Below are positions 28,217 to 58,106 of a stretch of DNA of 64,000 bases, piece by piece. The stretch lies in assembly GCA_036252695.1 (NCBI GenBank), contig GCA_036252695.1_4122.1, one strand, 5' to 3'. This stretch comes from a phage. The notes beneath the pieces were generated by a model, which saw only the letters and a list, made by a program, of their open reading frames with translations, was not told the DNA's origin and searched no databases. Numbering within the stretch: the first letter of the stretch is position 1; each line of letters begins with the position of its first letter. The position numbers were made by a program, and so were the translations under genes.

Positions 28217-28459
28217 ATGAAAGTACTGACAGAATTAGAAATGTATCATAGATTTAATAAGTACTATCATTTACTTAAACCTATACAGAGGATTAAGTGT
28301 CCCTTTGTAGTGAAACAGGTATTAATTTATGAGCATAAGTTATTTGTATCATTAGGTACGAATGAACAAGATTATTATTTGAAGTTGTACTTAATTACTT
28401 TAATTGAATTGATTAATTCCAAAACTCAGAAAGCGAAGAAATATAAAAATGAAAACTAA
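28217..28459 (+). CDS. LGTNYQ-family small protein (A26)
   Basis: RBS ggag; SLGTNEQDYYL. Confidence 0.55.
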   Translation: MKVLTELEMYHRFNKYYHLLKPIQRIKCPFVVKQVLIYEHKLFVSLGTNEQDYYLKLYLITLIELINSKTQKAKKYKNEN

Positions 28460-28790
28460 AATTCAACTCAGGGTATACATATCGTATGAAAATATATACG
28501 TTAAAAGTAGTCTATGTAAAGATGTAATGGACTACAAAGGTAAACCATTCACAGTTACTTACAGTTTAACAGGAGGTTTATATATCTCTTTTGCTAATTA
28601 CGAAAATAATATGTACGAACACATTGACATTGAAGATTTAAGTACTTTATCACCAGAGGAATACTTCCAGGAATCATTAGTATGGGATTTAGAGTTCCCT
28701 ATGCCATTAGTACATAAGATGATAGTACTAATGAAAGAATCTAAACAGGAGCCTAATGGTGATTATGAAGAACACATTATTGAGTATTAA
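28449..28790 (+). CDS. FQ-motif family protein (B)
   Basis: motif PEEYFQESLVWD. Confidence 0.55.
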   Translation: MKTKIQLRVYISYENIYVKSSLCKDVMDYKGKPFTVTYSLTGGLYISFANYENNMYEHIDIEDLSTLSPEEYFQESLVWDLEFPMPLVHKMIVLMKESKQEPNGDYEEHIIEY

Positions 28791-28880
28791 GAGTTCTGAT
28801 AGTACTGAGAGTACAAATGTTCTTGACAGTACTTTTCATTACTGATATAGTGCACCAACGTTAATCATAGGGTACAGATT

Positions 28881-29126
28881 ATGTTGAATTTTTTAAATTT
28901 CCTTATCGTCTTGTGTATTGTTCTTGGGATTGCACCATTTGTATTGTATTTCATGGATTCAGATGAAATGCAGAAGATGAATTGCACAAGGACAGGACAG
29001 AGTAGAGTAGAGACGATTCTTATGCCTGTTACGGTTATTGTTAACAACATGCCAATTACGAACATGGTCCCTACCCTAACGACAACGTACCAGTACTCTT
29101 GTACAGACGGAGTGAGGTGGAGATAA
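28881..29126 (+). CDS. hypothetical hydrophobic protein (possible membrane protein)
   Basis: N-term MLNFLNFLIVLCIVLGIAPFVLYF; promoter-like TTGACA at ~28825. Confidence 0.4.
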   Translation: MLNFLNFLIVLCIVLGIAPFVLYFMDSDEMQKMNCTRTGQSRVETILMPVTVIVNNMPITNMVPTLTTTYQYSCTDGVRWR

Positions 29127-29449
29127 TGCGTAAATTCAATTGTATTGTACGTAAGAATTCATGTTACATTGTAGTAGCTGATTTTAATACGGGTTCTGGG
29201 TTGAAGATATTTGAGTACAGAAAATGTAATAATTCTTTTCATTGGAAATTAGGTGCAAGAAAAACAAATACAATTTCAGTACCGAATTTATGTTCTATCT
29301 CTGAAGAAGAAGAGTTTCAGTACATGTTAGTACACGATGATTCTTTAGGTTTTACATTAGAAGATATGAAGAAAGTGCAACAGCAGATGATTGCACATTG
29401 TCATCTTCCAAAGAATTTTGTTCAACACGTATGTGAATTCCACATATAA
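29126..29449 (+). CDS. FQ-motif family protein (B)
   Basis: RBS ggaggtggag; motif EEEEFQYMLVHD. Confidence 0.55.
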   Translation: MRKFNCIVRKNSCYIVVADFNTGSGLKIFEYRKCNNSFHWKLGARKTNTISVPNLCSISEEEEFQYMLVHDDSLGFTLEDMKKVQQQMIAHCHLPKNFVQHVCEFHI

Positions 29450-29557
29450 GAGAAGAATATGAAATTTAATATTCACAGAATGAAGATCAATGTTGACACT
29501 CCATTTGAATAGTGTTAACATGTTTACCTATTCAATTTTAAGATAAGGTACAATGAT

Positions 29558-30367
29558 ATGAAATTTTTAACAGAATCTGAAGCAACCAATTTGATTATGA
29601 AAAAATTTAGTTCTGGTGATTTAAAGAAATCAGCATCTTACAAAGGTTCAGTTGCCTTGAGTTTATATCTTGGTACAAATTATCAGGAAGCAGCACAAGA
29701 GCAATATATTAATGCATTAAAGGAAGAGATTCGAGAAAAAATTAAAATTAATAAAGATTGCAGTACTGATTTTTCAATTGAAAAGTTATTGAATATGTTT
29801 GTCAATACAACAGAGACACCAAGAAAAGAAGATGTTGGTTTAGGTCATGTAAGTGATTTTATGTACGCAGCATATGAATCTTTAGTACAGACTGGGATTG
29901 CTAAATCTGTAATTGAAGTGCATCGTAAATTTGAAGAAGGTGATGAAATTAGACAATTAGTTAAAGATAAAGAAAATAAGATTGGTCGTTTATTTGTTAT
30001 TAAGGACAATGATAGTTCTTCATATATTTTGATTAATACAGATAAGACATTCAATTATTACAAGGATTTACATTATTATATGATTACCAATTACGGAATA
30101 TCCTATTTAAGAAGTAATTGGGAAGTTGAATATGTATTTTATTTTAACAAACATTCGCATGGTTCAACAAGAACAAAAGATTTATATGAGCAAGCATTAA
30201 TGATTGCTACGCCTAATGAAAATGGCATTTTCAGTAAAGATTACGATAAGGTATTGGAACGTTTAAAACACAGAGCTTCGTGCGGGACAATGCCGTGTGA
30301 TTATAGTATTACACAATACAATAAAAATTATCATTGTGGTGTTTTTAAGGAACAATATAAATCATGA
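29558..30367 (+). CDS. two-domain protein: N-terminal LGTNYQ module + ~200-aa C-terminal domain
   Basis: SLYLGTNYQEAAQEQYINALKEEIREKIK at residues ~35-65; 269 aa. Confidence 0.65.
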   Translation: MKFLTESEATNLIMKKFSSGDLKKSASYKGSVALSLYLGTNYQEAAQEQYINALKEEIREKIKINKDCSTDFSIEKLLNMFVNTTETPRKEDVGLGHVSDFMYAAYESLVQTGIAKSVIEVHRKFEEGDEIRQLVKDKENKIGRLFVIKDNDSSSYILINTDKTFNYYKDLHYYMITNYGISYLRSNWEVEYVFYFNKHSHGSTRTKDLYEQALMIATPNENGIFSKDYDKVLERLKHRASCGTMPCDYSITQYNKNYHCGVFKEQYKS

Positions 30368-30684
30368 AATTTAATATAGCAAAAACATCTAATGTATGTA
30401 TATTTGGTTATGCTGATGAGTTAGGTGATCTTGACATTCTATTGTACAAAAAGGATGGTGTTATGCATTTCAAGTACCAGGATGAAGAGGCAGACAATTA
30501 TCCTTTACCTAATTTAGTACAAATGCAGGAAGATGAATTATTCCAGTACAGCTTAGTATATGACATTGATATTTGCACGATGCCAGTACTAATTAATATT
30601 CAAAAAGTGATGCTCGATGTGTTTGATAGGCTAATACAAGGCACACAAGGAAGAACCATATATGTCAATGTACAAGACAATTAA
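30364..30684 (+). CDS. FQ-motif family protein (B)
   Basis: ATGA coupling; EDELFQYSLVYD. Confidence 0.55.
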   Translation: MKFNIAKTSNVCIFGYADELGDLDILLYKKDGVMHFKYQDEEADNYPLPNLVQMQEDELFQYSLVYDIDICTMPVLINIQKVMLDVFDRLIQGTQGRTIYVNVQDN

Positions 30685-30877
30685 TCAAGAATGGAAGACC
30701 CAAAAGTACAGGGAATTCAGTACTAGTTTAACAAAAGATGCATTGAATTTAAAAAGAACAGAGTTTGATATGTTTATTTTTCTTGGAACACGTTCACAGG
30801 AACAATACATTCATTATTATATAAGTTCATTGCGAACGGAGATCGTATGCAAAACACAGGGTATTATAAAAAAGTAA
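30662..30877 (+). CDS. LGT..Q-family small protein (A-like)
   Basis: FLGTRSQEQYI. Confidence 0.5.
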   Translation: MSMYKTINQEWKTQKYREFSTSLTKDALNLKRTEFDMFIFLGTRSQEQYIHYYISSLRTEIVCKTQGIIKK

Positions 30878-31113
30878 ACCAATATTTGTACGCTACAAAG
30901 TACAGGGATTTTTGTTTAAAGGGTGGTGATGAAGATTTTTCTTTGCGATTATCAGAATTTAATCTGTTATTTTATCTTGGTACATCGGAACAAGAAGAAA
31001 TGGCACAGAAATTTATCAAGCACCTTGAACAAAAAATTCATATGCAAATTTTGATGCTTAAGGTACATAATGAGATAAACAAATATGAACCCAACAATAG
31101 TACAGGATCTTAA
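30847..31113 (+). CDS. LGT..Q-family small protein (A-like)
   Basis: YLGTSEQEEMA. Confidence 0.5.
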   Translation: MQNTGYYKKVNQYLYATKYRDFCLKGGDEDFSLRLSEFNLLFYLGTSEQEEMAQKFIKHLEQKIHMQILMLKVHNEINKYEPNNSTGS

Positions 31114-31471
31114 ACAAGTAATATTCCTTTTGAATACAAGAAGTGAAATGTATACAGAGTTTAAAGAGATTAATGCATTTTATCAGAATTTTGTAATTCA
31201 AGAGTTCAGTGATTTAATTACAGATGCATTATTTGAATTATCGGAAAAATACAAAGGATCAGAGTTCAGTGTTAAGAATGTTATTCGTCCAATTACAAGG
31301 AAAATTATATTATCACATTTTACATTTGACAATAAAGATTTATTCAGTCATAATCCAAGTACAGCTTTATATTTTATTCCTGATTCAGACAAAAATCATC
31401 CTATTCATTACGGATGGATTTTGTCGTACATAGTACAAGGAAAGGAGTATCCTATTAAATGGAACGATTAG
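31085..31471 (+). CDS. hypothetical protein
   Basis: ORF track; no family motif. Confidence 0.45.
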   Translation: MNPTIVQDLKQVIFLLNTRSEMYTEFKEINAFYQNFVIQEFSDLITDALFELSEKYKGSEFSVKNVIRPITRKIILSHFTFDNKDLFSHNPSTALYFIPDSDKNHPIHYGWILSYIVQGKEYPIKWND

Positions 31472-31819
31472 GGCGATTAGATTATTACACAATTAATACA
31501 AATTATTTGTTGCGTAATATAAAATCCGATTACAAAATATGGATAAAGAACAGAGATAGTATGTGTTATGAATTTTATTTAGATTATGCCATCAAACGCT
31601 TTTTAAGAGAAGAACATTAATGCACACACCGCACAAAGAGCACAAAAATACAAAAACGATAAATGTTTTAAATGATTCTTTATTGGTGAGTATAAATTTA
31701 TATTATAAAATTCATTTAAATGGTGGTATTGAAAATTTTAGTTATTATTTGAGTACAATATCGCAAGAGCATTTAATATACCAAGATCATTTATTGCACC
31801 CGAATCCATAAGGCGAATT

Positions 31820-32365
31820 ATGAATGAGATAGAATTATTAGCACACAAGATTAGTACAATAATGCTTATCCTAAATAACAACCATCCTATATCGCAGATA
31901 GATGGAATCCTGAGTCAGAGGACAGGTGGTAGTTTATATTTGACATTAACAGAGGTTATCGCAAGGAATTACATTGATATTGAAATCGAGAACAGTGATG
32001 CATCAGGAAAGGTTGATGTAGGTGCATTAATCAGTTCAAATCCAGTATCAGCATCCCCATTGACCAAAGGTGTTAGTACAGGATTCGAAGGGTATTTGTG
32101 GTACAATACCAATGATGATTATTTTATATATCAGCATTCCAATACAAATTATGATGAAGACAAATTTCAGTTCATAGACCCTTATGATGAAGCTGAAGTA
32201 TTTCAAAAATCATTAATCACAAAACCGCATGAGATGATGTATCTAATGTTATTCAGTACAATGCATTTGAATCCATTAATTAAAGGTTTAAAATTTTATA
32301 TTCAATTGAATTTAGTCCATGTAGTTTATGATTTATTAATGCAAGGATATAGTTATGAAGTATAA
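31820..32365 (+). CDS. FQ-motif family protein (B-like)
   Basis: EAEVFQKSLITK. Confidence 0.5.
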   Translation: MNEIELLAHKISTIMLILNNNHPISQIDGILSQRTGGSLYLTLTEVIARNYIDIEIENSDASGKVDVGALISSNPVSASPLTKGVSTGFEGYLWYNTNDDYFIYQHSNTNYDEDKFQFIDPYDEAEVFQKSLITKPHEMMYLMLFSTMHLNPLIKGLKFYIQLNLVHVVYDLLMQGYSYEV

Positions 32366-32672
32366 AATGCTTAATACAGTATCAGGGGTATATGTAGAAT
32401 TAGAATCCGATTATTCAGATGGATGGAATTTTATTAAACGACACGATAGAAATACATGGTACATGGCACATTTGGATAATGACGTAATAATAGATAATTT
32501 TGTCGATTTTAATACATTATCAGAAGAAGAATTTTTCCAAATGCAATTTGTGCTTGATACAAATGGATTTGATTTGCTATTATTAAGGAATATTCAGAAA
32601 GCGGTTAATGAATTCATAATCCAAAATAATTCAGGTAAAATGGGGATGTTCCATGATCTGGAAGTACAATGA
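32355..32672 (+). CDS. FQ-motif family protein (B)
   Basis: EEEFFQMQFVLD. Confidence 0.55.
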   Translation: MKYKMLNTVSGVYVELESDYSDGWNFIKRHDRNTWYMAHLDNDVIIDNFVDFNTLSEEEFFQMQFVLDTNGFDLLLLRNIQKAVNEFIIQNNSGKMGMFHDLEVQ

Positions 32673-33210
32673 AATTCAGTACACCTACGCTAATGCAATC
32701 CTTATGGGACAAAAGTTAGCTTGTATTGTTGCAGCCTTATATAATGCACAGAAAGATTACAAGCGTCATATTCACAAATATATTGGTATTATTCCATCGA
32801 AGTACAATACATATATTGCGTGCACGAGTCATTTTGATAAACGATTCAATACACCTGATACCCCAAATGCCAGTAGTGTTATTGGTCTTTTGGATTTCGC
32901 ACCTGGTGCTGTTATTGGAAAGAATGATTTAGAGTACACATGGTATAATAAAAATGCCCCGTTAGTAATGGTAAAATATGATACAGAAACGAATAAAACA
33001 ATAGAGTACAATACATATAAATCAGAGGAAGAATTTTTCCAAGGTTCATTGCTTGTGCCAGTGCGTTTGTTGTTTTATAATGTCCTTATTAGTACAGTAC
33101 ACAATAGTCCATTACACAAGAATCACAAAATTAATTTCAATTTTTGTGCTTATGCGATTGATGGTGTGTATGAGTGTTTAATGGAGGTATTGAGTTATGA
33201 AGCTGAATAA
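32653..33210 (+). CDS. FQ-motif family protein (B)
   Basis: EEEFFQGSLLVP. Confidence 0.55.
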   Translation: MIWKYNEIQYTYANAILMGQKLACIVAALYNAQKDYKRHIHKYIGIIPSKYNTYIACTSHFDKRFNTPDTPNASSVIGLLDFAPGAVIGKNDLEYTWYNKNAPLVMVKYDTETNKTIEYNTYKSEEEFFQGSLLVPVRLLFYNVLISTVHNSPLHKNHKINFNFCAYAIDGVYECLMEVLSYEAE

Positions 33211-33538
33211 TACATTTGATATTAATAAGTTAAGAGAATGGTTTTATAGTATTGAAATTGAAGCCATCCCATATCATAGATATGAACAATATAATTTAAC
33301 CAGTATTGATATCAGTGAGTTGTACGCGTATTATCAAAGTGCATTAGAGATGCATAAGTTATTTTTGAGTACAGATTTTGTTCTAAATTACAATTTTGAG
33401 GAATTTAATAATTATAATTTAGTACAGAAATATGTAGTAGCAAAGTATATGTACCTTCAAGGAATTACAAGTAATTTGGAATTCAATACAGTCCTTGCTT
33501 TAGTTGAGGTAATTTTATGCAGTACATGTATGATTTAG
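33197..33538 (+). CDS. hypothetical protein
   Basis: ORF track; no family motif. Confidence 0.45.
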   Translation: MKLNNTFDINKLREWFYSIEIEAIPYHRYEQYNLTSIDISELYAYYQSALEMHKLFLSTDFVLNYNFEEFNNYNLVQKYVVAKYMYLQGITSNLEFNTVLALVEVILCSTCMI

Positions 33539-34023
33539 AGTTCAGCTTAGATGCTGCCTTTAAATTTGTTCACAAGATAGAAACAATATACAGTACATTA
33601 TGTGCAATAAAATCAGTAACAGAAGAGCTTGATGTTGGTGAAAAATATCAGGTATGGAATAATACATTTCTAAACAAAGAACGTTGCTCTACGGGGTTTA
33701 ATATTTTAACATTTAATCCCAGCAATTGTTACCCAGAGAAGCATGAACGTTATCCGAATGACGACATGTGGTTTGATTACACAAAAGATGGTGATATGTC
33801 ATCCCTTGTAGTTCCTGATGATTTTAATGCCGAAGATTTAACGGAAGAGTGGTGGTTTCAACAGAATTTAGTCCATGATGATATTGATTTATTTTTTTAT
33901 GTAGTATTTAAAATGCTTTATCACAACAATATATTAAAAGATAGTGTGTTTTTTTCATGTCTATATATTGATGATTTGTACAATGAAATCCAAATCAACA
34001 TTCCCAGCACGCCTGTATCGTAA
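33517..34023 (+). CDS. FQ-motif family protein (B)
   Basis: EEWWFQQNLVHD. Confidence 0.55.
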   Translation: MQYMYDLEFSLDAAFKFVHKIETIYSTLCAIKSVTEELDVGEKYQVWNNTFLNKERCSTGFNILTFNPSNCYPEKHERYPNDDMWFDYTKDGDMSSLVVPDDFNAEDLTEEWWFQQNLVHDDIDLFFYVVFKMLYHNNILKDSVFFSCLYIDDLYNEIQINIPSTPVS

Positions 34024-34048
34024 GATATGGGCTTTTTTCGTTTTGGTA

Positions 34049-34077
34049 TTGACAAAGAAGTGCAAAGCTGTTATCAT
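34049..34077 (+). promoter_or_regulatory. sigma70 promoter internal to the array
   Basis: -35 TTGACA 34049-34054, 17-nt spacer, -10 TATCAT 34072-34077. Confidence 0.55.
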
Positions 34078-34105
34078 GTGTAATCATTTTAAAGGAGAAC
34101 ATATA

Positions 34106-34618
34106 GTGAGTTTCATAATCCCAAGTACATACGAAGATGCATCAAGTGCAGTTCATAAGATTCATTATATTTTTAATTTAATTATTAGATCTGCAAAAAA
34201 TAAAATGTATGCACCTCTTGTGGAATACGATAAAAATGAGGAAATTTTTGTTAGCACAGACCAAATTATTTTTCCATATTTCAATGAAGATAGATTGTGG
34301 TTCATGCATTTAGCTGCATTACAAAAATATAAAATGTCAATTCGTAATAATTTGGATATACCGTTATATCATCCTGATATTGGAGAGGATGAATATTTTC
34401 AGTACAGTACAGTACACCGCCATGAAGATATCTTTGTTGCTATGCTTATTGCTAAATTGAATACCGTTGATTTGGAGCAGTACAAATACAATAATAAATC
34501 ATGTAAGATCATAATCCCTGCATTCATAGCTCTTTATGATTATGTGGTGCATAACAAAAAAGATGATACATATGCTTTCAATGAAGAGTATTTGAATTTT
34601 TTTAAGGAGAACATATGA
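34106..34618 (+). CDS. FQ-motif family protein (B), GTG start
   Basis: RBS aaaggag 8 nt before GTG 34106; ORF-track ATG 33944 lies upstream of the promoter; EDEYFQYSTVHR. Confidence 0.5.
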   Translation: MSFIIPSTYEDASSAVHKIHYIFNLIIRSAKNKMYAPLVEYDKNEEIFVSTDQIIFPYFNEDRLWFMHLAALQKYKMSIRNNLDIPLYHPDIGEDEYFQYSTVHRHEDIFVAMLIAKLNTVDLEQYKYNNKSCKIIIPAFIALYDYVVHNKKDDTYAFNEEYLNFFKENI

Positions 34619-35142
34619 GCAGTGACGTGCAGAAATCAATGACATTCAATGAAATTGGTGCATTTAAAGATAAGATCATTGATTGTCTTGAATACATGAT
34701 TTGTAGTAATATCGAAAGTATCGAGATATTTAACAAGACAAATCGCTCTTACCATATGATGTACATTGCAAACAATAATGGTATCATTCCATTTATTTCG
34801 GATAGTACAATATGGTACGCATGTGATACGAAAAAAACCACAATAGGTTTACATTTATTTGAGACACATTATGATCTAATTATTCCTGAACATTGTATGC
34901 AAGAAGAAGAATATTTTCAAATGCAATGTATACATTCACCATTAGTGTTGTTTAGTTTATATATTATACCTTATATCACCAAATGTGTTCATGAGAATAA
35001 AGCTCCGTGGAATCATGAATTTGTATCGTTGAAGTTATTGTATAATGTATTAGTAGAATATTATGATTACAGGCACAATGGTACAATCAGTGATGTATGG
35101 GATTTTGAATCGCTAAGGGTGAAAACATACACAGGTGAATGA
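34615..35142 (+). CDS. FQ-motif family protein (B)
   Basis: ATGA coupling; EEEYFQMQCIHS. Confidence 0.55.
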   Translation: MSSDVQKSMTFNEIGAFKDKIIDCLEYMICSNIESIEIFNKTNRSYHMMYIANNNGIIPFISDSTIWYACDTKKTTIGLHLFETHYDLIIPEHCMQEEEYFQMQCIHSPLVLFSLYIIPYITKCVHENKAPWNHEFVSLKLLYNVLVEYYDYRHNGTISDVWDFESLRVKTYTGE

Positions 35143-35758
35143 TATGACCAGAATTAAAATGTATGATTTGATGCAGTACAGTAAAATTGCCATTCCGGTG
35201 CTTAATAAAGTGCTGGATGCATTCATTGCCAAATACCCTGAGAATTCAGTGTTATGTATTCCATTTAGTGTTCCAGATAAAGATGATATATTTCAAGTGA
35301 ATGTCAGTACACGTGGTATTACATTGCAGCAGAAATACATGGATACGGAATATTATGGAATAAAGTTGGATTCAGTACAGGGTTCTAAATCAGCCTATGA
35401 TTTTTTTGTTCCTAATAACATCGAGTCATGGGAAACAAACATTTCAAAGAAAGATGAAAATGATGTTCCTATTAGTGGTGTGTTCAACAATAAAGTTTTT
35501 TATTATTACGAAACCGACAAATTCCCTGAAGAGTTATATTACAATTCAGAAATGAATGAAGATGTAGATGCATTCATGTTTCAATTATCTTTAGTACATG
35601 ATATCATTGATGTTCAAGAGTTAAGAGCAGAAATCAATTTAGCTAAAGAGTTATCGGACATGCTCCCACCGTTTAGTATGCTTTTTTGTGAAGGAGGTTA
35701 TTTTTCAAAAGAAGTGTTTGAACATTTCGTAGATGTTGTAAAAGGGTTGGATATATAG
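35135..35758 (+). CDS. FQ-motif family protein (B)
   Basis: DAFMFQLSLVHD. Confidence 0.55.
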   Translation: MNDMTRIKMYDLMQYSKIAIPVLNKVLDAFIAKYPENSVLCIPFSVPDKDDIFQVNVSTRGITLQQKYMDTEYYGIKLDSVQGSKSAYDFFVPNNIESWETNISKKDENDVPISGVFNNKVFYYYETDKFPEELYYNSEMNEDVDAFMFQLSLVHDIIDVQELRAEINLAKELSDMLPPFSMLFCEGGYFSKEVFEHFVDVVKGLDI

Positions 35759-35759
35759 T

Positions 35760-35954
35760 ATGCTTATAATTGATATTAAACAAAAATACCGTAAGTTTGA
35801 TTGGTTCACCGATAGTTTCCAGCTTGAATTATTACATATGAATATCAGTGAAACATTATGTGCAGAAACACAAGATGAATTTGATGATAGAGTGATGAAC
35901 ATAGTAATGCTTTCTTGCTTTAAACATTTTGGTTATTTTTTCGGACAGAATTGA
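35760..35954 (+). CDS. hypothetical small protein
   Basis: ORF track. Confidence 0.4.
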   Translation: MLIIDIKQKYRKFDWFTDSFQLELLHMNISETLCAETQDEFDDRVMNIVMLSCFKHFGYFFGQN

Positions 35955-35962
35955 GGTAAAAA

Positions 35963-36478
35963 ATGCATCAACACAAGCATCATTCATATGATTTTGCAAT
36001 TAACATTATGAAGTTTATTCGAGCGTTGGAGGATGGGAAGCTTAGTCATAAGTACAGGAAAGAGGGTAACAATTGGTTCAGAAATGATTCCGAGTTCAGT
36101 TGTCATAAAATCGTGTATAGTAATCAGTACAGTGCCAATTACCTACAAGATGTAGTGATGTGTTTTGAATACGTGTTGCAGTTCAGGGGTTCAATCCAAG
36201 ATGAGTTGATGGAGAACATGTACATCCGATACCTTCCAATGCTCAAAGATGAAAATGTATTATTAAATTCAATATACCAACGAGTTCGTGAAATTGAGTG
36301 CAGGGATATATTAGATACAGAAGAATCGTATTTCCAGCAATCCCTGATTTATTCACCTGATTTATTACAGGTACATAATTTGTTTAATACATTACGTCAG
36401 AACATCAGTACAGACATATTTTTGTCATTATCGGATTATGATACATTTGTCAAAGATTTAGAGGAAATAGGTTTATGA
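35963..36478 (+). CDS. FQ-motif family protein (B)
   Basis: RBS gaggtaaaaa; EESYFQQSLIYS. Confidence 0.55.
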   Translation: MHQHKHHSYDFAINIMKFIRALEDGKLSHKYRKEGNNWFRNDSEFSCHKIVYSNQYSANYLQDVVMCFEYVLQFRGSIQDELMENMYIRYLPMLKDENVLLNSIYQRVREIECRDILDTEESYFQQSLIYSPDLLQVHNLFNTLRQNISTDIFLSLSDYDTFVKDLEEIGL

Positions 36479-36816: not shown

Positions 36817-36826
36817 GGAAAGTACA

Positions 36827-37378: not shown

Positions 37379-37553
37379 TTTTGTGATGGGATGATGCTAA
37401 TGAAAGAGTTATTTGAAGATCAGTTCAATACATATGTGGATAATATTCTTTATTCCAGTCGTGCCAGTCAACGAGGAAATCGTGCTTACAATATTGATTA
37501 CCTATTGGTGGTGCTGAGTTCACAGTACACCAATGCGGTACAAAGGGTTTATT

Positions 37554-39876: not shown

Positions 39877-39885
39877 GATTATAAA

Positions 39886-46347: not shown

Positions 46348-46354
46348 GGTTTAT

Positions 46355-46917: not shown

Positions 46918-46950
46918 CCCTTTATATTAATTGTAAAGGGTTATAACACA

Positions 46951-50235: not shown

Positions 50236-50746
50236 AGATGATATTCTAATTAGACTAATTAATAGTTTAATAAAGTTCTCAAATAATGATGTCGATACAT
50301 ACAAAGTGGGGGATATTGAATTTAAATCATTTGGTATGTACGGTGAGGATAAAACATATTATGCGTCAATGAAATTTCAAGATTTTCACGAGATGTTAAT
50401 ATCGTTATCATATGAAGATGTTGATCCAAGATGGAGTTCCAGTATTTCACTATCGAGAATGGTAATTCGTAGTAAGCATCGTTATATTTCGTCAAAGAAT
50501 ACTCCTAACTTGATTAATATTGTGTTGAATGAAAATACAAATCCCCTATCTAAACATGATATCGTACCGTTAACCGATGAAGTTATTTTTCAATTGAGTA
50601 CCATTTGTGATGAAGATGTGATATCATGTATGAAAATTTATGAGAAGGTTGGGAGTGATATTCCCATGAACTATTACCTAACTATAGATGGAACGTACCT
50701 TCGAGATGAGGTTCTAGCGTACATCGACAGTGTTTTACCAAAATAA
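50228..50746 (+). CDS. FQ-motif family protein
   Basis: DEVIFQLSTICD; ATG 50228. Confidence 0.5.
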   Translation: MDKDDILIRLINSLIKFSNNDVDTYKVGDIEFKSFGMYGEDKTYYASMKFQDFHEMLISLSYEDVDPRWSSSISLSRMVIRSKHRYISSKNTPNLINIVLNENTNPLSKHDIVPLTDEVIFQLSTICDEDVISCMKIYEKVGSDIPMNYYLTIDGTYLRDEVLAYIDSVLPK

Positions 50747-50772
50747 AGACCCGTATGGGTCTTTTTGTGTTT
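50747..50772 (+). terminator. intrinsic terminator
   Basis: agacccgtatgggtct hairpin + ttttgtgttt. Confidence 0.8.
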
Positions 50773-50833
50773 ATGGCTTTACAAGAGCATTCAGGTGTGT
50801 TATACTTGATTTTAACTAGAGTTGGAGGAATCT

Positions 50834-51400
50834 ATGAGTACTGAATTAATTAAAGAAGTCACATTACTTCTGAAGCATTGTTTTAAGTTCATTCCTGATA
50901 CTGGCTCACGCCAGTACATTAAAGTTAATGAGAAATATAACATCAATATCCTTGTATCTGAAACTGCGAGCAGTTATGCAAACATTGAGTTGGATTCTGA
51001 AGAAAAATATACAGTATTACAAATCATAGCAGATGTACAACGTAAACAAGATTATCGTTCTTCATTTTACAACGATCATCTGTGTGTTTGCTCAAACTTC
51101 AGTGAGAATAAAATTGTGTATAAGAATTTATACACACATGAAGTGATTGATACATATAATTATAAAATTTCATCTGATGAATACAATGTTCTAATGTTCA
51201 ACGCAAACCTTTTGTATGATGCCAGTACTGTACGCTGTTTAGAGTTAGCATATAAAATTCCAAAGATCATGGAAAGAAAAGATTTGATTCACTTTAAAAC
51301 TATTTTAAAATACAGTACAAAAGAATTAGAGGATTTAGTACAGGCTCTTAAGAATTTCATTAATGAACATGTACCTGTTAAATTCGAGGATGCACAATGA
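50834..51400 (+). CDS. hypothetical protein (189 aa)
   Basis: RBS ggagga before ATG 50834. Confidence 0.55.
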   Translation: MSTELIKEVTLLLKHCFKFIPDTGSRQYIKVNEKYNINILVSETASSYANIELDSEEKYTVLQIIADVQRKQDYRSSFYNDHLCVCSNFSENKIVYKNLYTHEVIDTYNYKISSDEYNVLMFNANLLYDASTVRCLELAYKIPKIMERKDLIHFKTILKYSTKELEDLVQALKNFINEHVPVKFEDAQ

Positions 51401-51981
51401 ACCATATCAGAACTAAAATTTTGAGACTCATGCATGACATTGCAGAACTTTCAGAGATTCATGACATTACAGAAATTGTTGAATTTGATGATTATCGACT
51501 GAAAATTGAAAACAAATCCAAACATCGTTTTGGATCAGTTCAGTTGGATGTATATAAAACTTATGAATTTTCTAAAAAAATTAAAAGTTCATGGGATACG
51601 ATTACTATGTACATTCGCACATCCAGAAATCGTGAACGTATTGGTTCTATTTCTTCTAATATGGTATTTGCGAATGCATTACATGAAAAAATGAATAAAA
51701 TTGTAGAATCTAATTTCAGTGAAGATGATGGATTTATTGGGTTGGATGTTCCACCAGAATTAGACCAAAGTGAAGATATTCGAGATGCATTCATTTTCCA
51801 GAAATCCTTGTTGGACAATTACAAAGAATTCGAGTACTTAATGCTTTGTTACGATACTGCAAAAATTCTTGATTGTGGTGAACTAGTTATGTACAATGAT
51901 TTTATCAATTGCAAGACTGATGTTCTGAATACACTACTTCAAAATATAGAATCTGTTAAGGAAAAATATGAACGCTTATAG
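51397..51981 (+). CDS. FQ-motif family protein (B-like)
   Basis: ATGA coupling; RDAFIFQKSLLD. Confidence 0.5.
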   Translation: MNHIRTKILRLMHDIAELSEIHDITEIVEFDDYRLKIENKSKHRFGSVQLDVYKTYEFSKKIKSSWDTITMYIRTSRNRERIGSISSNMVFANALHEKMNKIVESNFSEDDGFIGLDVPPELDQSEDIRDAFIFQKSLLDNYKEFEYLMLCYDTAKILDCGELVMYNDFINCKTDVLNTLLQNIESVKEKYERL

Positions 51982-52546
51982 TTATATGACAGAACGCCAT
52001 CAGTTATTATATGATATCAGTAAAAAAATGCTATCAATTGTTGGTAGTGCGAAAGAAATTGAAAAACAATATCTCATCCGTGATGTATCAATTTCATCCA
52101 AATGTTGGTCAAATGAATATTACGACCACGGTATTCTTACTATTTCTGGGGCCAGAAATATTTGTATTGTAAAAAATAAAAGTAAAAGTAATGAAGAGTG
52201 TGAGATTAGAACCGATATACAAATTAAGGATGATGGAAGTTTTTCACACCACCCATTCCATATTAGTACTGTTGGTGTTTTATATAATATTAAAGTACTA
52301 TTCGGTGATGAAGAGTATGTGTTAAAATCTATCAATCCAGATTCAAGTACAGTTGAAGAAGAACTGTTCCAGATGAGCACTGTTATACCTGAAGAGGTTC
52401 TTAGTACTATTATTTTTTGTAGTTTAATTTATCATGAATACAAAAAGAACCAGTTCGATTTCCACATGTTAGGAACGTACATCTTCAATAATTTGAATGT
52501 AGATCGTTTAAAAGCATTAAATGCAGCAATGGATAAGGTTATATAA
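51968..52546 (+). CDS. FQ-motif family protein
   Basis: EEELFQMSTVIP. Confidence 0.55.
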   Translation: MNAYSYMTERHQLLYDISKKMLSIVGSAKEIEKQYLIRDVSISSKCWSNEYYDHGILTISGARNICIVKNKSKSNEECEIRTDIQIKDDGSFSHHPFHISTVGVLYNIKVLFGDEEYVLKSINPDSSTVEEELFQMSTVIPEEVLSTIIFCSLIYHEYKKNQFDFHMLGTYIFNNLNVDRLKALNAAMDKVI

Positions 52547-52974
52547 TGACAAGAGATGATTGTTTGTACATATGGGATATAATTGAAACTACACTTTCAA
52601 ATCCAGAAAATTATAAAACAAAAAAAAGACAACGACACAAAATATGGATAGATTTGTTCGTTGAGGGCATACACGCAGTGACTATTTGGGATTCACCGAG
52701 GGCATCAGCATCTACTCTATTGGACAATGAATGCATTGATTGTATTAATTCCACTTTTCATCTCTACGGTACTACATTTTTCGGTACATTTCTGGATATT
52801 GAAAGTAAAGATGATATTGATTCACTTGCGTTACAATACCAAGTACTGTATAATACTAAATTAATTTACGATTTAGTACTAGCTTCTTATGTGTATAAAT
52901 TAATGATGAAATATAATCATATTTCAGTTTCAGTTTATACTAAGGATATTCTTTCATTAAGAGACAAAACATGA
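52546..52974 (+). CDS. hypothetical protein
   Basis: ORF track; TAATG coupling. Confidence 0.45.
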   Translation: MTRDDCLYIWDIIETTLSNPENYKTKKRQRHKIWIDLFVEGIHAVTIWDSPRASASTLLDNECIDCINSTFHLYGTTFFGTFLDIESKDDIDSLALQYQVLYNTKLIYDLVLASYVYKLMMKYNHISVSVYTKDILSLRDKT

Positions 52975-53480
52975 GTTTATTAAATGCACGCGAATTAGTT
53001 GAGATGTATGAGATTTTGTCTTCATATAAAAATTCTCATGGAGATGTGATTCTCGACAAAAAGTTCCATGTCAGTGTTGAACATATATCAAATATAGATA
53101 TGATTTCTTTGGTGGAAAGTAATAAGTCAGGTCTTGAACGCGATATCATGCGTTTGATTTATATTCCCAAACCATCATATACTAATGATAGTTCAATTAG
53201 TAATGAGACATTCATGTATAGTCCTGGTACGGATTCTACTATAGTATCGCTGTCCAATAAATCAATGGGTACTTTCCAATTCATCTATACCAGTACTGAT
53301 AACATTGAAGAAATTGAATTTCAAAACAATACATTAAGTCCATGTAGTAGTGTTATAACCTTTATGTCATATCTATGGTCAACTAAAACAAGTGCTGTTG
53401 TATATAGTTCAAATTATACACAAGATAGTATTGTTGAATCATATAAAGTTCTAAAGGAATACTATGAAAATAACAAATGA
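52971..53480 (+). CDS. FQ-motif family protein (divergent)
   Basis: ATGA coupling; EEIEFQNNTLSP. Confidence 0.5.
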   Translation: MSLLNARELVEMYEILSSYKNSHGDVILDKKFHVSVEHISNIDMISLVESNKSGLERDIMRLIYIPKPSYTNDSSISNETFMYSPGTDSTIVSLSNKSMGTFQFIYTSTDNIEEIEFQNNTLSPCSSVITFMSYLWSTKTSAVVYSSNYTQDSIVESYKVLKEYYENNK

Positions 53481-54045
53481 TTTTATTAAAAGTGTAGTAC
53501 ACCCTATGCTTAGTATTATGAAAAAAATACAGAATCTACCGGAAGATAACGATTACAAGTTTAATCGTTTTGATTCAGATGTGTTTTGTATTGAAATTGA
53601 AATTAATAACAATCGCAATTTACATTTAAAATTCAAAGAATCGTCAAGTCCGTACTACAACTTTGATATGAATTTTAAAATAGATACTGACATTGAAGAA
53701 AACGTAATATCAAATCATACTAGCAAAAATGGTTTTATGCATAGAACTACTATGTACAATAATAAAAATAGTATTATATCTAAATGGAATCATCAATTCA
53801 CTAAAATTTGTGAAATTGAATATAGTGATTTTGGTGAAGAGCATTACTTTCAGTTAAGTACAATTCATGAACTTCCACCGTATGATTATGTTAAAACATG
53901 GTTTGATATTCATAATATAATTGATGATGCAATCAAACTTCCATTTGGTGTGTCAATATCATATACTGCTCCTAAAACATTTGTTTTTACTGAAGATATG
54001 ATTATGAAAAAGATATGGGCAATTATCCCACTTATGACGGATTAA
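53464..54045 (+). CDS. FQ-motif family protein
   Basis: EEHYFQLSTIHE. Confidence 0.55.
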   Translation: MKITNDFIKSVVHPMLSIMKKIQNLPEDNDYKFNRFDSDVFCIEIEINNNRNLHLKFKESSSPYYNFDMNFKIDTDIEENVISNHTSKNGFMHRTTMYNNKNSIISKWNHQFTKICEIEYSDFGEEHYFQLSTIHELPPYDYVKTWFDIHNIIDDAIKLPFGVSISYTAPKTFVFTEDMIMKKIWAIIPLMTD

Positions 54046-54050
54046 ATTCG

Positions 54051-54077
54051 TACCAGGGGTTGACTCTGGTATTTTTG
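54051..54077 (+). terminator. intrinsic terminator
   Basis: taccag...ctggta hairpin + tttttgt. Confidence 0.55.
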
Positions 54078-54106
54078 TATGATACATTGTCCTAAAGGAG
54101 AATTTT

Positions 54107-54658
54107 ATGAACTACAATCATGATCTTTTTACATTATGTGCATCCAAATGTGTTGATGGATGGACAGATAAAATCAATACCATAATTCATCGATATCTGG
54201 TCTTTAGTTCTCGTGCACGAAGTGAGGGGGCTATGGATTTCAAATATACACTATCTATTGATGGTGTAACTATCCATGCAGACGAAGAACGTCTGAGCAT
54301 TAATTTGTATGATTCCTGTGTATTTGCTATTCACCAAAAGATGGGGAAAGGATGGGGTTGTAATAACATTAACTCAAAAGCTATCTTTTGGGTTGGTCAC
54401 CACCAGACAGTACTTGATCCTTCAATCAAATCTAATCTTTTATCCGATAATATGGTTTATGATTTATTGTACTCCGAAGAACAACATTTTCAGTTAAGTA
54501 CATTACATGATCTGGCACAGTACGAGGATTGTTACAAAACATTAGAACTATGCCATTCCCTTGAACTTAAAGATAAATTGATACAAGTTTACCCTTCATT
54601 CTTTCATGAAGAAGTACAAAGTACACTAGATCATATTTTATATGGATACGATAAATGA
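54107..54658 (+). CDS. FQ-motif family protein
   Basis: RBS aaggagaa; EEQHFQLSTLHD. Confidence 0.55.
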   Translation: MNYNHDLFTLCASKCVDGWTDKINTIIHRYLVFSSRARSEGAMDFKYTLSIDGVTIHADEERLSINLYDSCVFAIHQKMGKGWGCNNINSKAIFWVGHHQTVLDPSIKSNLLSDNMVYDLLYSEEQHFQLSTLHDLAQYEDCYKTLELCHSLELKDKLIQVYPSFFHEEVQSTLDHILYGYDK

Positions 54659-55257
54659 GAAAAAGTTATCAAGAAGCTATTGACTTAATTCGTGAAGTTA
54701 TCAAGGTGGCTCCTGCTGCTATTGAGTTCAAGAAGTCCATATACAAGAAGTATGGTTCAATGTCGAGTATGTGCTTTCAAAAGAAACGTAGAGCATTCAC
54801 TACCCAGTACTGGAATGATTCTATCATCCTGAGCAATGAGACTCAGCGTATTTTAACACTAGAATCTGAACCTAATGAGTACGGGGAAGGGAACATTTGT
54901 GTACCTGATTATGATGAAATTAACTTCAACTGCGGTGATTTTGAAACAACATTATTACTTCATGAGGGTTATCCAGAAGGTGATGTATTAGCTGAGTACA
55001 ATCCAAAAACTAAAATTCTCAAAAGAGGAATCCAGTTCACTATTAATAACAAAGATGATGTTCAAGCAGCACTGATGCAACTGAGTACAAGTGAACCTAT
55101 CACTATTAGTGTAGAAGAGTTATGGGGAATTATTTCAGTACTCAATGAGTGCTACAAAGTAAAATCATTGCGTAAACACAGCATTATATTACATACCAAT
55201 ATGGCAAATATAAAATGTAAGCACATTCAAGAAATGGTGGTTCCAGATGGACTTTAA
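54655..55257 (+). CDS. FQ-motif family protein (divergent, MQ variant)
   Basis: ATGA coupling; QAALMQLSTSEP. Confidence 0.45.
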   Translation: MRKSYQEAIDLIREVIKVAPAAIEFKKSIYKKYGSMSSMCFQKKRRAFTTQYWNDSIILSNETQRILTLESEPNEYGEGNICVPDYDEINFNCGDFETTLLLHEGYPEGDVLAEYNPKTKILKRGIQFTINNKDDVQAALMQLSTSEPITISVEELWGIISVLNECYKVKSLRKHSIILHTNMANIKCKHIQEMVVPDGL

Positions 55258-55831
55258 AGAAATTGAAAGTAAATTAAAGTACTTCAAAGATATCAAACTT
55301 CTTTGGAAAAAGTATAAAGTTGATTACAATTTCAGTGATGATGAGACAATAAAATACATTGAGATTAATATCAAAATCAAGTTCAAGAATAATAATTATG
55401 GTGAAGTAAGCTTAAATCATACTGGTATATCACTCAAGGACTATGATGGTACAACACTCGCATATTTCGACTTCACACCAGAACCAGGTGAAACACTACT
55501 TAGTGAGATAAATTCCTATGACATGGAAGTGTTCGGCGGGAATCCGTTACTGTTCCGACTTTCTGAAGAGTGGAGTGAAGAGTACTACACTTACAAAGAT
55601 GGTGTAGTACTTGACATTCATGGAGAAGTTGTGAATGACTTGGAAGAACGTTTGTTCCAAGAATTGTGTGTTTCAAATACTTCATATGCATACAATCATA
55701 TCCTTGACATGTTTGATTTATATAATAAAATAGATGCTGAAATGAATGCACATGGTATTCATTACCTTACAATTAACGACTATGCTCAACTCGAAACCGC
55801 TGTGAAAGCATTGACTAAAGTACTGAAATAG
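55247..55831 (+). CDS. FQ-motif family protein (divergent)
   Basis: EERLFQELCVSN. Confidence 0.45.
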   Translation: MDFKEIESKLKYFKDIKLLWKKYKVDYNFSDDETIKYIEINIKIKFKNNNYGEVSLNHTGISLKDYDGTTLAYFDFTPEPGETLLSEINSYDMEVFGGNPLLFRLSEEWSEEYYTYKDGVVLDIHGEVVNDLEERLFQELCVSNTSYAYNHILDMFDLYNKIDAEMNAHGIHYLTINDYAQLETAVKALTKVLK

Positions 55832-55840
55832 GAATGAAAT

Positions 55841-56254
55841 ATGAAACTGTATCATGCGAGTACTGTAAAAATTGATAACTTTTATATCCCGTATGGTGGT
55901 CTTCATATGGGAGGTAAACACAGTGCTTTGGAAGCTGCATTACGCAAGCTGAGAAGCCCACTGAACGTAGTAGACGCATGTACAGTATACTTGCATACCT
56001 TAGAAGTTGATGTTGATAACGTGCTTCTGTGTGAAGATTTAGGTAGTGATGATGAGTGGCGTGCACTAATTGAACATTGTATTTCGAAAGGTTACGATGC
56101 TGTTCAGTACAAAAATGACTACGAGCCTGATAATGTTCCTAGTTATATGATTTGGGATGCATCTAAAGTTCGCATCATTGAAGTTGATGCTATGCATATG
56201 GATGAAGCTGAAATGATTATCGAAGATTTTCTTGATGAATATGAAGGTGTATAA
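55841..56254 (+). CDS. hypothetical protein (137 aa)
   Basis: RBS aggaatgaaat; ORF track. Confidence 0.5.
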   Translation: MKLYHASTVKIDNFYIPYGGLHMGGKHSALEAALRKLRSPLNVVDACTVYLHTLEVDVDNVLLCEDLGSDDEWRALIEHCISKGYDAVQYKNDYEPDNVPSYMIWDASKVRIIEVDAMHMDEAEMIIEDFLDEYEGV

Positions 56255-56790
56255 TGACTGACCCGATGGTAGCACTGGCACGTACAAAATTACTATTAAA
56301 GATTGGTGAGATTTTTACGGTTCTTCTGTCCAATAATATTGATATCACTGAGCTAGATATTAGGCAACCGTGGGAAGTGACTATGTTCTCGGCGTTCCAC
56401 CGATTGTCATATAAAGGTGAAAGTGTTCTTGATTTTAACCCTAAAGCAAAATTCATAGATTATGCTGCGTTGTACAGAGAGTTGCACCGAAATATTTATT
56501 CCGGTTGTATAACCAATAACTTTGACCGAATTCAAGTTCAAACTGCATCACATGAGTTCAATGATTTACTTTATCCAGAATTTAATCTAACTGAAGAATT
56601 ACTCTTTCAGTACTCGTTAATTCTCACAAATCTCGAAACGCTAGAGTACTACAAAGAGTTAGTAGATATTTTTATGAATACACGACTTTCAAAAGATATT
56701 GTGATATTCTGGTATACAGAGCATGTTACGGAGGAATTGCTTACTGAATTTCTTCTAAATATGACAGCTATAAAGGAGAAGTTATGTTAG
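56254..56790 (+). CDS. FQ-motif family protein
   Basis: TAATG coupling; EELLFQYSLILT. Confidence 0.55.
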   Translation: MTDPMVALARTKLLLKIGEIFTVLLSNNIDITELDIRQPWEVTMFSAFHRLSYKGESVLDFNPKAKFIDYAALYRELHRNIYSGCITNNFDRIQVQTASHEFNDLLYPEFNLTEELLFQYSLILTNLETLEYYKELVDIFMNTRLSKDIVIFWYTEHVTEELLTEFLLNMTAIKEKLC

Positions 56791-57257
56791 ATATTTTAGG
56801 AAACATCGATACTGCAAATTATTTTATCCAGGACGCACTGTTCAATACAGTTCAACAAGGATTAGAAGTTCGTCATAACGTTTACCAAGGTGATGGTTAT
56901 TTCGTTGATATTGTTGAGGCACGAAAGAATACGTTTAATGTTAACATTACAACACTGGGTAGACAGAACATTGCACGAATTTTAGTAAGTAAAGATGAAA
57001 TTGTATTGAGATACAGTGCTAAGTTTATGTTGACTTATAAGAAAAAAACTGATATGTTCAGTACTAATTTATTTGATGAACCATTTGACCTTGATGATAT
57101 TGAAGCTACTTTCTTTACTCAAAGTACTATGGTAAAATACACTGATGTTCAATTTTCTGCTGATGTAATGTCAGAAACATTACAAATGATCAAGGTATTA
57201 TTTTATGCATTTGAGCAATTTAGAGAAGAAAGAAACAAGGTTAACAACCACAGATGA
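56784..57257 (+). CDS. FQ-motif family protein (divergent)
   Basis: EATFFTQSTMVK. Confidence 0.45.
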   Translation: MLDILGNIDTANYFIQDALFNTVQQGLEVRHNVYQGDGYFVDIVEARKNTFNVNITTLGRQNIARILVSKDEIVLRYSAKFMLTYKKKTDMFSTNLFDEPFDLDDIEATFFTQSTMVKYTDVQFSADVMSETLQMIKVLFYAFEQFREERNKVNNHR

Positions 57258-57618
57258 ACTAATAGAGGCGATCACTAAGGAGTCAAAATACCACAAAGGG
57301 ATTCGTCTATATTTTATAGATATTGGTTCAATGGAAGGCATATACATTTATGGTTCACAATCTTTATCTTATGATGTAATGCCAAAAAAACACGTAAAAA
57401 TCTTTTTAGGTTCAGATAAAAAAACTTTCTTGACAATTAATGATAAAAACGTTATTATGAATTCGTTGGGTCATGATAAGGTGGAAATTGATCTAAACAC
57501 GCTTGAGGATATTGATTTTTTTCAATACGAGTGTTTAGGTGTTGACTTACATGGCATTAGTAGCGATAAGATAAAATCATTAATCAAATATTTCGAAGGT
57601 GTTCATAAATGTATCTAA
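57205..57618 (+). CDS. FQ-motif family protein (divergent)
   Basis: DIDFFQYECLGV; start uncertain. Confidence 0.4.
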   Translation: MHLSNLEKKETRLTTTDELIEAITKESKYHKGIRLYFIDIGSMEGIYIYGSQSLSYDVMPKKHVKIFLGSDKKTFLTINDKNVIMNSLGHDKVEIDLNTLEDIDFFQYECLGVDLHGISSDKIKSLIKYFEGVHKCI

Positions 57619-58106
57619 CTAAATCAATGAAAAATTCATTTGATAAAATCAAGAGTTGTCTTGATGGGGAAAATATTACAAGTGTTACACAAACTGCTGA
57701 CCAAATTCAAAGCAGTTCAAGTGATTGTACTGTTATTTTAGGTTTACATAGTCTACGTTTATCAATAGTAAATAATATTGACAACACTGCTATTGTAATC
57801 ACACCATGCAATATTCAAAATGAGAATGGTGTATATCTTCATCACATGGGAACAGTATTTCATATTTTCAATACAAACGAAAACATTGTTAAGGAATACA
57901 AATCTCTTAATATTGATTCAGGTGAATTATTTCAAATGAGTACTTTGTACTCATGTAATTTCACAGATACTTCATGCATTTTGCCATTTTTCTTGGAAAT
58001 TATTAAGAAAATGGAAAATTTAAAACGTGAATACAATAAAGAAATGGTTCCTGAAGCTATATTAAATATTACTAATGCTATAGAGAAGTATAATGCAGTG
58101 ACTTAA
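57609..58106 (+). CDS. FQ-motif family protein
   Basis: SGELFQMSTLYS. Confidence 0.55.
   Translation: MYLTKSMKNSFDKIKSCLDGENITSVTQTADQIQSSSSDCTVILGLHSLRLSIVNNIDNTAIVITPCNIQNENGVYLHHMGTVFHIFNTNENIVKEYKSLNIDSGELFQMSTLYSCNFTDTSCILPFFLEIIKKMENLKREYNKEMVPEAILNITNAIEKYNAVT

Follow-up and report, generated by a model that had tools for sequence, protein, structure and literature searches.

What does it mean when a recurrent protein motif and a recurrent DNA word are written in the same letters? The question is raised by a 64,000-nucleotide stretch of phage contig GCA_036252695.1_4122.1 (hereafter the window), in which a family of paralogous proteins, the FQ family, carries a motif FQ-x-S-T-V whose S-T-V may be encoded by AGTACTG, an extension of the palindromic hexamer AGTACT. 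A reading made from the sequence alone had set out two directions, protein-level selection that inflates the AGTACT count or a DNA-level requirement for AGTACT that constrains the protein, and had leaned toward a DNA signal at least partly independent of the motif. Counts in all frames, synonymous shuffling and conservation make a stronger case for that lean than was proposed: AGTACT imposes itself on the genes, not the reverse, and its overlap with FQ-x-S-T-V is real but minor. The excess is independent of the FQ motif, survives synonymous shuffling, is kept across genera, and is built into early promoters at conserved offsets. On balance, and with moderate confidence, we favor the explanation that AGTACT acts in cis as a DNA signal under selection of its own throughout a clade of enterobacterial jumbo phages, where a dimeric factor reads it both as a promoter operator and as a genome-wide landmark.

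The window matches Escherichia phage 121Q and its relatives at 96-98% identity across 38-58 kb, and its source is assigned on this similarity to the Asteriusvirus jumbo coliphages of the 121Q/PBECO4 group, "Rak2-like" jumbo myoviruses with genomes of about 350 kb. Its genes are small, tightly packed, and nearly all on the plus strand. All frame, intergenic and coding counts given here use our own gene model.

AGTACT abundance and its independence from the FQ motif

The window contains 255 copies of AGTACT where dinucleotide shuffles predict 17.1 +/- 3.7, and 252 strand-matches to AGTACTG where 6.7 are expected. The preferred context is H-AGTACT-D, commonly tCAGTACTGa. The 165 copies found inside genes (about 65%) occupy all three reading frames (67, 38 and 60 sites in frames 0, 1 and 2) and are roughly uniform along gene length, while 87 copies are intergenic, at a density of 8.9 per kb versus 3.0 per kb inside genes, or about three times higher. 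With proteins held fixed, a synonymous shuffle gives 40.9 +/- 5.7 sites in window genes, against the 165 observed. The range 28449-58106 has 78 sites versus 6.9 expected, distributed 33/18/24 by frame plus three intergenic, and the synonymous shuffle gives 20.5 +/- 4.0 for the 75 coding sites there, counts in which sites shared by paralogues are non-independent observations. The excess is confined neither to one frame nor to FQ-family genes.

Iterative profile searching with Jackhmmer among the window's own proteins collects 39 FQ-family paralogues, whose span agrees with the range that the sequence-only reading had assigned to them. F-Q is invariant (F108/Q109) within a motif F-Q-x-[S/A/N/Q/M]-[L/T/V/C/F]-[V/I/L/M], and its key position is more commonly L (19 members) than T (16). 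The example cited earlier is exact, 45908-45925 reading TTC CAG TAC AGT ACT GTT for F-Q-Y-S-T-V, but the statement that many FQ genes are built this way goes too far: S-T is spelled AGT-ACT in 7 of the 39 members, six of these being AGTACTG for S-T-V (Table 1). The other spellings among the 14 members with S-T are AGT-ACA (4), AGT-ACG (1), AGT-ACC (1) and AGC-ACT (1).

On these data it is scarcely credible that the AGTACT count is driven up by selection for the recurring FQ-x-S-T-V motif in the proteins. AGT-ACT does stand at the motif in seven paralogues, probably in part by common descent, but FQ motifs hold at most 10-11 of the 78 sites in their range, to say nothing of the 255 in the window. 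Masking all 43 F-Q motifs in the 39 genes, together with the five codons that follow each (903 nt), leaves 68 of the 78 sites versus 6.5 expected, which refutes this alternative. The intergenic excess is larger still, FQ genes that lie in an AGTACT-free block contain no site at all, and other genera show the excess without the overlap: in those sampled, FQ motifs lack the serine and never coincide with AGTACT.

Codon and dipeptide usage indicate the direction of the constraint. Within AGTACT-rich blocks, 65 of 106 S-T dipeptides are spelled AGT-ACT, versus 16.5 expected, and in non-FQ genes the figure is 48 of 75, versus 11.7; parallel excesses are found for GTA-CTN (V-L) and for xAG-TAC-Txx. 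The four most over-used dipeptides in these blocks are F-Q (2.37x), which is the FQ family's own motif, Q-Y (2.14x), S-T (1.89x) and V-L (1.78x). Because Q-Y, S-T and V-L are over-used while the reversed dipeptides T-S (0.87x) and L-V (0.96x) are not, the constraint runs from DNA to protein.

An AlphaFold model of one FQ member, of moderate quality overall (predicted local distance difference test score, pLDDT, 71) and with pLDDT 90-95 at the motif, has F-Q closing a helix and S-T-V forming the turn ahead of the next helix, plausibly a tolerant position. The overlap would be a by-product, the turn after F-Q accepting S-T, S-L or S-V and serving as one of many landing pads, and selection for AGTACT elsewhere would spell most S-T dipeptides as AGT-ACT and raise the usage of S-T, Q-Y and V-L. 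Orthologues are instructive at these codons. For the FQ genes at 42052 and 47272, the residue that follows switches between V and L with AGTACT retained; in the gene at 41604, AGTACT is gained through ACG to ACT along with L to V; and the orthologue of the gene at 51796 has AGTACT at the same protein position in a different frame, with S-V-L spelled TCAGTACTT. The FQ family has no match in Pfam and no fold match in the PDB, its only structural neighbors are viral proteins from the same clade, and it is specific to this phage clade.

Conservation and turnover of AGTACT sites

Conservation was assessed over 46 kb of the window aligned to one relative, Ecwhy_1, at 85.6% identity. AGTACT is intact in Ecwhy_1 at 140 of 170 sites, versus 94 expected from frame-matched control hexamers (p ~1e-13). 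Synonymous positions, proposed earlier as a check, are clearly conserved: third codon positions inside AGTACT are 94.0% identical, versus 81.0% in the 30 nt that flank it on each side (p = 5e-8), and third positions of the codons AGT, ACT, GTA and TAC are conserved at 96.5% inside AGTACT versus 82.0% outside it (p = 1e-6). AGTACT sites are under purifying selection at synonymous positions. Turnover is balanced, with 30 sites present only in the window (losses) and 35 only in Ecwhy_1 (gains). In 17 orthologous core genes of 121Q and Klebsiella phage RaK2, at about 70% amino acid identity, there are 33 and 37 sites but only 7 at the same position (0.06 by chance), so AGTACT density is maintained while individual sites turn over. 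Spacing within regions is more even than random (coefficient of variation 0.72-0.84, p <= 0.0085 in three of four regions).

A phage DNA enzyme in need of regular coverage, such as a T4-type topoisomerase II, a nickase or a primase, might likewise use AGTACT as its substrate site, and both the even spread across coding DNA and the conservation of density rather than position fit such an enzyme. The central GTAC would suit a symmetric four-base stagger, A^GTAC^T, and among the products of the phage are topoisomerase II subunits, a primase and several nucleases. We nevertheless regard this explanation as unlikely. We know of no phage topoisomerase or primase that requires an exact hexamer, the fixed placement of sites at the edges of -35 and -10 elements in three genera would go unexplained, and two long site-free blocks would be left without the function.

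Occurrence across the Rak2-like clade

The complete genome of 121Q contains 903 AGTACT sites, about 2.6 per kb, with a density of at least about 1 per kb everywhere, structural and replication genes included, that rises to 6-8 per kb in the putative terminal repeat. AGTACT is the sole outlying palindromic hexamer of this genome, at 9x its dinucleotide expectation, where the next palindrome reaches 1.6x; the longer word CAGTACTG stands 44x over expectation. One-mismatch neighbors of AGTACT lie between 1.16x and 2.14x, save AGGACT/AGTCCT at 0.58.

For the genera outside Asteriusvirus, samples of 30-50 kb were used. AGTACT is the top hexamer in the samples of RaK2 (119 copies in 50 kb, 9.9x), Cronobacter phage GAP32 (253, 18x), Pectobacterium phage CBB (226, 15x) and Yersinia phage fHe-Yen9-04 (158 in 30 kb, 17x). 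Four genera, Asteriusvirus, Alcyoneusvirus, Mimasvirus and Eneladusvirus, with hosts in Escherichia, Klebsiella, Cronobacter/Pectobacterium and Yersinia, thus have the AGTACT excess. The sample of the more distant Pseudomonas phage PA5oct has 4 copies versus 9.9 expected, and Escherichia coli K-12 has 3 per 50-kb sample. The literature we searched, which leaves many subscription-journal papers outside its coverage so that an earlier description is possible, makes no mention of the AGTACT palindrome in these phages, nor of the absence of GCGC described below.

The host range brings to mind the nucleoid-occlusion protein SlmA, whose E. coli site GTGAGTACTCAC has AGTACT as its core (PMC3020112) and which the phage might recruit or titrate. 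All the AGTACT-rich phages have hosts in the Enterobacterales, and no excess is seen in the Pseudomonas phage. The flanks that SlmA requires, however, are specifically avoided: in 348 kb, GAGTACTC occurs 3 times versus 194 for CAGTACTG, the 12-bp GTGAGTACTCAC has no match, GTnAGnnCTnAC has 4, and GT.AGTACT.AC has only 2. At the +1 flank, all four genera have C least often (6-9%). SlmA recruitment is rejected on these flanks; it is largely refuted, and we give it very little credence.

Placement of AGTACT in early promoters

AGTACT adjoins the sigma-70 hexamers of early promoters, lying beside the -35 element and just upstream of the -10 element. In addition to the 16 near-identical promoters of Table 1, intergenic DNA contains the arrangements AGTACT-A-TTGACA, TTGAC-AGTACT and AGTACT-G-TATAAT, and sites are commonly paired about 22 bp apart, bracketing the -35 element. 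Measured from TATAAT, AGTACT is most frequent at -7 and at -27 to -29 in the window, GAP32 and CBB, and at -7 in Yen9-04, and annotated promoters of GAP32 read aaaAGTACT-TTGACA-N10-AGTACT-T-TATAAT. Judged from promoter sequences, this placement has an operator-like geometry that is conserved across genera and hosts.

A stem-loop of the GGGGAA-N3-4-TTCCCC type is found a few bases past the predicted transcription start of all 16 early promoters (for example at 3225-3250, 3685-3710 and 4365-4390). It has no match in Rfam, and could be a 5' mRNA stabilizer or a regulatory hairpin.

Since the signal is an exact palindrome in DNA, its reader would be a sequence-specific factor that recognizes the duplex as a symmetric dimer and is most likely encoded by the phage. 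Because paired sites 22 bp apart bracket the -35 element and abut the -10 element, such a factor would act at sigma-70 early promoters as an operator-binding regulator, most plausibly one that shuts off early transcription. The approximately 900 evenly spread sites per genome, 40-100x denser than in host DNA, would concentrate the factor on phage DNA, where dispersed sites could act as roadblocks or as organizing or self-marking landmarks.

AGTACT-free blocks

Two blocks near the terminal repeat provide a natural control. No other long stretch of the complete 121Q genome is devoid of AGTACT; in that genome they occupy 155.5-159.6 kb and 161.8-169.4 kb, immediately inward of the terminal repeat, and they are free of sites in the 85%-identical relative as well. 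Both consist of old paralogue arrays (26-32% identity), and GCGC is absent from them too. The second block, 7.6 kb long, includes eight FQ genes without a single AGTACT, and the S-T of the motif is spelled AGT-ACA there. A founder effect is rejected as the origin of the blocks, the paralogues being old and the relative's blocks being free as well. A tandem array at 22844-28459 of 26 small paralogues (50-88 amino acids) with a common ...L-G-T-N-Y-Q-E... motif has its greater part in the first block.

The blocks bear on whether the excess could be a functionless product of biased mutation or repair, such as very-short-patch-like repair or biased gene conversion toward AGTACT. Such a drive gives over-representation together with apparent conservation, and AGTACA, AATACT and AGTATT do interconvert with AGTACT between relatives. 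A genome-wide drive cannot, however, explain two old, conserved blocks without excess in the same genome, nor would it account for fixed promoter offsets across genera and non-random, even spacing; no signature like that of very-short-patch repair is seen, neighboring words being enriched 1.2-2.1x in all cases but AGGACT/AGTCCT. A neutral origin is accordingly rated as quite improbable.

Methylation and the closest known systems

The nearest likeness among iterated words is HIP1, the highly iterated palindrome GCGATCGC of cyanobacteria, which overlaps methyltransferase targets and whose function is debated (PMC6604393, PMC6105098). Both are short exact palindromes many-fold over-represented genome-wide, in coding DNA in all frames as well as between genes, and AGTACT shows the same pattern with an approximately 10-fold excess unique among palindromes. 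It differs from HIP1 in the word itself, in the kind of organism (virulent jumbo phages of Enterobacterales) and in its fixed position at sigma-70 early promoters. Methylation of AGTACT is conjectural, with a Dam-family methyltransferase gene as the candidate.

By analogy with HIP1/CGATCG, AGTACT may nonetheless be the target of a phage DNA methyltransferase, with the methyl mark itself functional as an epigenetic self-mark or a methylation-sensitive promoter switch; we hold this, tentatively, as the chief alternative. GTAC adenine methylases are known, whereas characterized members of PF05869 act mostly on GATC. An exact 6-bp palindrome with weak flanks and mildly enriched neighbors is typical of recognition of the restriction-modification type, AGTACT contains adenines, and methylation of sites that adjoin promoter hexamers could affect the early promoters. 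The window encodes a PF05869 N6-adenine methyltransferase beside a cytidyltransferase gene, an arrangement conserved in GAP32 and Yen9-04. But PF05869 enzymes are widespread in phages without an AGTACT excess, too widespread for this gene to be diagnostic of a reader, and it was set aside as such. Nor need a methylation target be over-represented, the enzymes chosen for published digests are uninformative for AGTACT or GTAC, and the -35 and -10 hexamers adjoin the sites without containing them, an arrangement that fits protein binding better.

AGTACT is also the hexamer of ScaI-type restriction-modification targets, with which it shares exact-word recognition. Phages normally avoid restriction targets, whereas AGTACT is enriched 9-18 fold and under purifying selection; the words depleted, as a target under host pressure would be, are instead GCGC, CGATCG and ACCGGT.

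The best functional analogue is the stoperator of Cluster A mycobacteriophages (L5, Bxb1), in which tens of copies of an early-promoter operator, scattered over the phage genome, are bound by one phage protein that blocks elongation as well (PMC9283540, PMC6550527). AGTACT likewise overlaps early promoters and has copies throughout the genome. Stoperators, however, are 13-14 bp long, asymmetric, orientation-biased and mostly intergenic, occur at about 0.5 per kb in temperate phages, and have a known repressor, while AGTACT is a palindrome of 6-8 bp at 2.6 per kb, lies about 65% within genes of a virulent phage, and has a binding protein that is only postulated. Chi, DNA uptake sequences and FtsK-orienting polar sequences (KOPS) are also short words kept frequent since a protein reads them along the replicon. 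These are asymmetric and orientation-dependent, whereas AGTACT is palindromic, and the phage possesses true Chi besides.

Weight of the evidence and implications

Several points weigh against AGTACT as an operator and landmark read by a dimeric factor. Intergenic AGTACT is not better conserved in Ecwhy_1 than its highly conserved flanks (94.7% vs 93.7%), and for this reason the promoter role is argued from architecture, not from differential conservation. No reader protein was found: proteins encoded in the direct terminal repeat have no Pfam DNA-binding domain, and a helix-turn-helix regulator of CBB (CBB_511, beside a sigma factor) has no detectable homologue in 121Q. With its 6-bp core and weak flanks, AGTACT is shorter than the usual site of a transcription factor and more sharply defined than most operators, and it resembles restriction-modification targets. 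That coding sites serve as roadblocks or landmarks is wholly conjectural, no explanation is offered for the two long blocks without sites, and the analysis used a gene model of our own, a single relative for conservation, and partial samples of the other genera.

If AGTACT is such a signal, these virulent phages would clearly exemplify purifying selection that acts genome-wide on a short word, strongly enough to dictate codon choice, bias amino acid sequence, and perhaps favor a matching tRNA. It would give a testable handle on how 350-kb jumbo phages that lack a nucleus and modified bases control early transcription and tell their own DNA from that of the host. If these therapeutic phages were recoded synonymously or rebuilt by synthesis, functional sites could be lost by the hundreds without anyone noticing.

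Absence of GCGC and other sequence anomalies

GCGC is wholly absent from the window (0 vs 42 expected) and from the whole of 121Q (0 vs 178 expected from dinucleotides). The count is likewise zero in every AGTACT-rich phage sampled (Ecwhy_1, fEgEco12, RaK2, GAP32, CBB and Yen9-04), compared with 99 vs 90 expected in PA5oct and 342 per 50 kb in E. coli K-12. The absence of GCGC co-varies with the AGTACT excess. The nearest published parallel is the absence of AGCT in pandoraviruses (bioRxiv 10.1101/712018). Density of AGTACT and absence of GCGC are simple markers for this clade in metagenomes.

Rather speculatively, the two features might be halves of one sequence-based identity code common to Rak2-like jumbo phages, replacing the strategy of T4, in which base modification separates self from host. 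A phage factor would read AGTACT to regulate early promoters and to mark, organize or protect phage DNA, a phage (or host) activity would destroy GCGC-rich host DNA while sparing DNA free of GCGC, and the code would have force enough to remodel the proteome and would come with its own tRNA-Ser(ACU). Such a tRNA, confirmed by ARAGORN, is encoded in 121Q at 75464-75555, outside the window; its codon would be AGU, whose use for serine AGTACT inflates and which makes up 36% of serine codons in the window. Neither tRNAs nor Rfam families were found in the window, nor in a search of 1-30 kb.

Other palindromes are avoided in 121Q, namely CGATCG (0.06x), ACCGGT (0.07x), GACGTC (0.19x) and TGATCA (0.35x), as are words containing GGTCC/GGACC, while terminal-repeat samples show an enrichment of CCWGG of about 2x. 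The window is strongly enriched in GCTGGTGG, the Chi sequence of E. coli, with nine copies on the plus strand (2174, 8596, 13107, 13617, 14567, 15814, 18183, 19591 and 21054) and three on the minus strand (2162, 8534 and 62162), versus 0.25 expected per strand. The copies cluster on a single strand of the terminal repeat. Chi is likewise enriched in the other AGTACT-rich genera and absent from the PA5oct sample; the enrichment suggests attenuation of RecBCD at genome ends. A Chi-like protection of ends by AGTACT was considered and dropped as unnecessary, genuine Chi being itself enriched.

Terminal repeat and neighboring features

Table 1. Coordinates of the features discussed, numbered from the first nucleotide of the window.
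Feature	Position	Strand	Basis or remark
Dispersed AGTACT palindrome, 255 copies	1..64000	.	Counts versus expectation, flanks, frames
FQ-family array, 39 paralogues of 100-190 amino acids	28449..58106	+	Jackhmmer profile search; motif columns
AGTACTG as S-T-V in FQESTV	39024..39030	+	Motif columns
AGTACTG as S-T-V in FQQSTV	40222..40228	+	Kept in Ecwhy_1 although the third base of the next codon changed
AGTACTG as S-T-V in FQNSTV	42061..42067	+	Orthologue: AGTACT kept, V to L
AGTACTG as S-T-V in FQGSTV	43102..43108	+	Motif columns; Ecwhy_1 comparison
AGTACTG as S-T-V in FQYSTV, the example cited earlier	45917..45923	+	Motif columns
AGTACTG as S-T-V in FQYSTV	47281..47287	+	Orthologue: AGTACT kept, V to L
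AGTACT in another frame over Q-Y-S of FQYSLI (CAG TAC TCG)	56609..56614	+	Motif columns
AGTACT as S-T in FQMSTL, without the following G	57939..57944	+	Motif columns
Sixteen near-identical strong early promoters, AAAAAGTACT-TGCAA-N16-TATAAT plus 5' stem-loop	3184..21880	+	Predicted from sequence
Inferred direct terminal repeat of about 21 kb, with early-gene block	1576..22746	+	Homology with fEgEco12, whose ends are known from experiment
AGTACT-free block 1, array of paralogues of about 70 amino acids	22611..27252	+	Site counts
AGTACT-free block 2, with 8 FQ-family genes	30725..38312	+	Site counts; natural control
Dam-family N6-adenine DNA methyltransferase (PF05869), candidate reader or modifier	62908..63429	+	Pfam

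The first 22 kb of the window match the right end of phage fEgEco12, which has direct terminal repeats of 20,993 bp confirmed by experiment (PMC13070987); a similar repeat of 20,668 bp is reported for Sharanji (PMC11895373). The physical left end of fEgEco12 (AGTAGGCAGAGG...) matches window position 1,576, and the inner end of its repeat maps to about 22,746, by which homology the segment between these positions would be the terminal repeat of the present phage. AGTACT density peaks there, at about 6 per kb overall and 11 per kb in intergenic DNA. Stop-codon reassignment was rejected as the cause of the scarcity of long open reading frames in 1-28 kb, a region of small genes and promoters.

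Six tandem paralogues of about 60 amino acids (starting MHKE/MNKEHKEFY...) at 47-1232 stand just ahead of the repeat boundary, each holding one to three AGTACT sites. They are followed by about 2 kb (1240-3180) without a credible gene, which spans the inferred physical end of the genome at 1576 and contains 17 AGTACT sites, mostly as CAGTACTG; two of the sites, 21 bp apart (1528 and 1549), directly precede that end, and direct repeats of GGCTAAACGGCTAGA-like units occupy 2330-2480. Among the proteins encoded within the repeat, at 18419-19003 and 13718-13975, are one with a weak resemblance to protein kinases and a DksA/TraR C4 zinc-finger protein; they may help to take over the host by acting on RNA polymerase.

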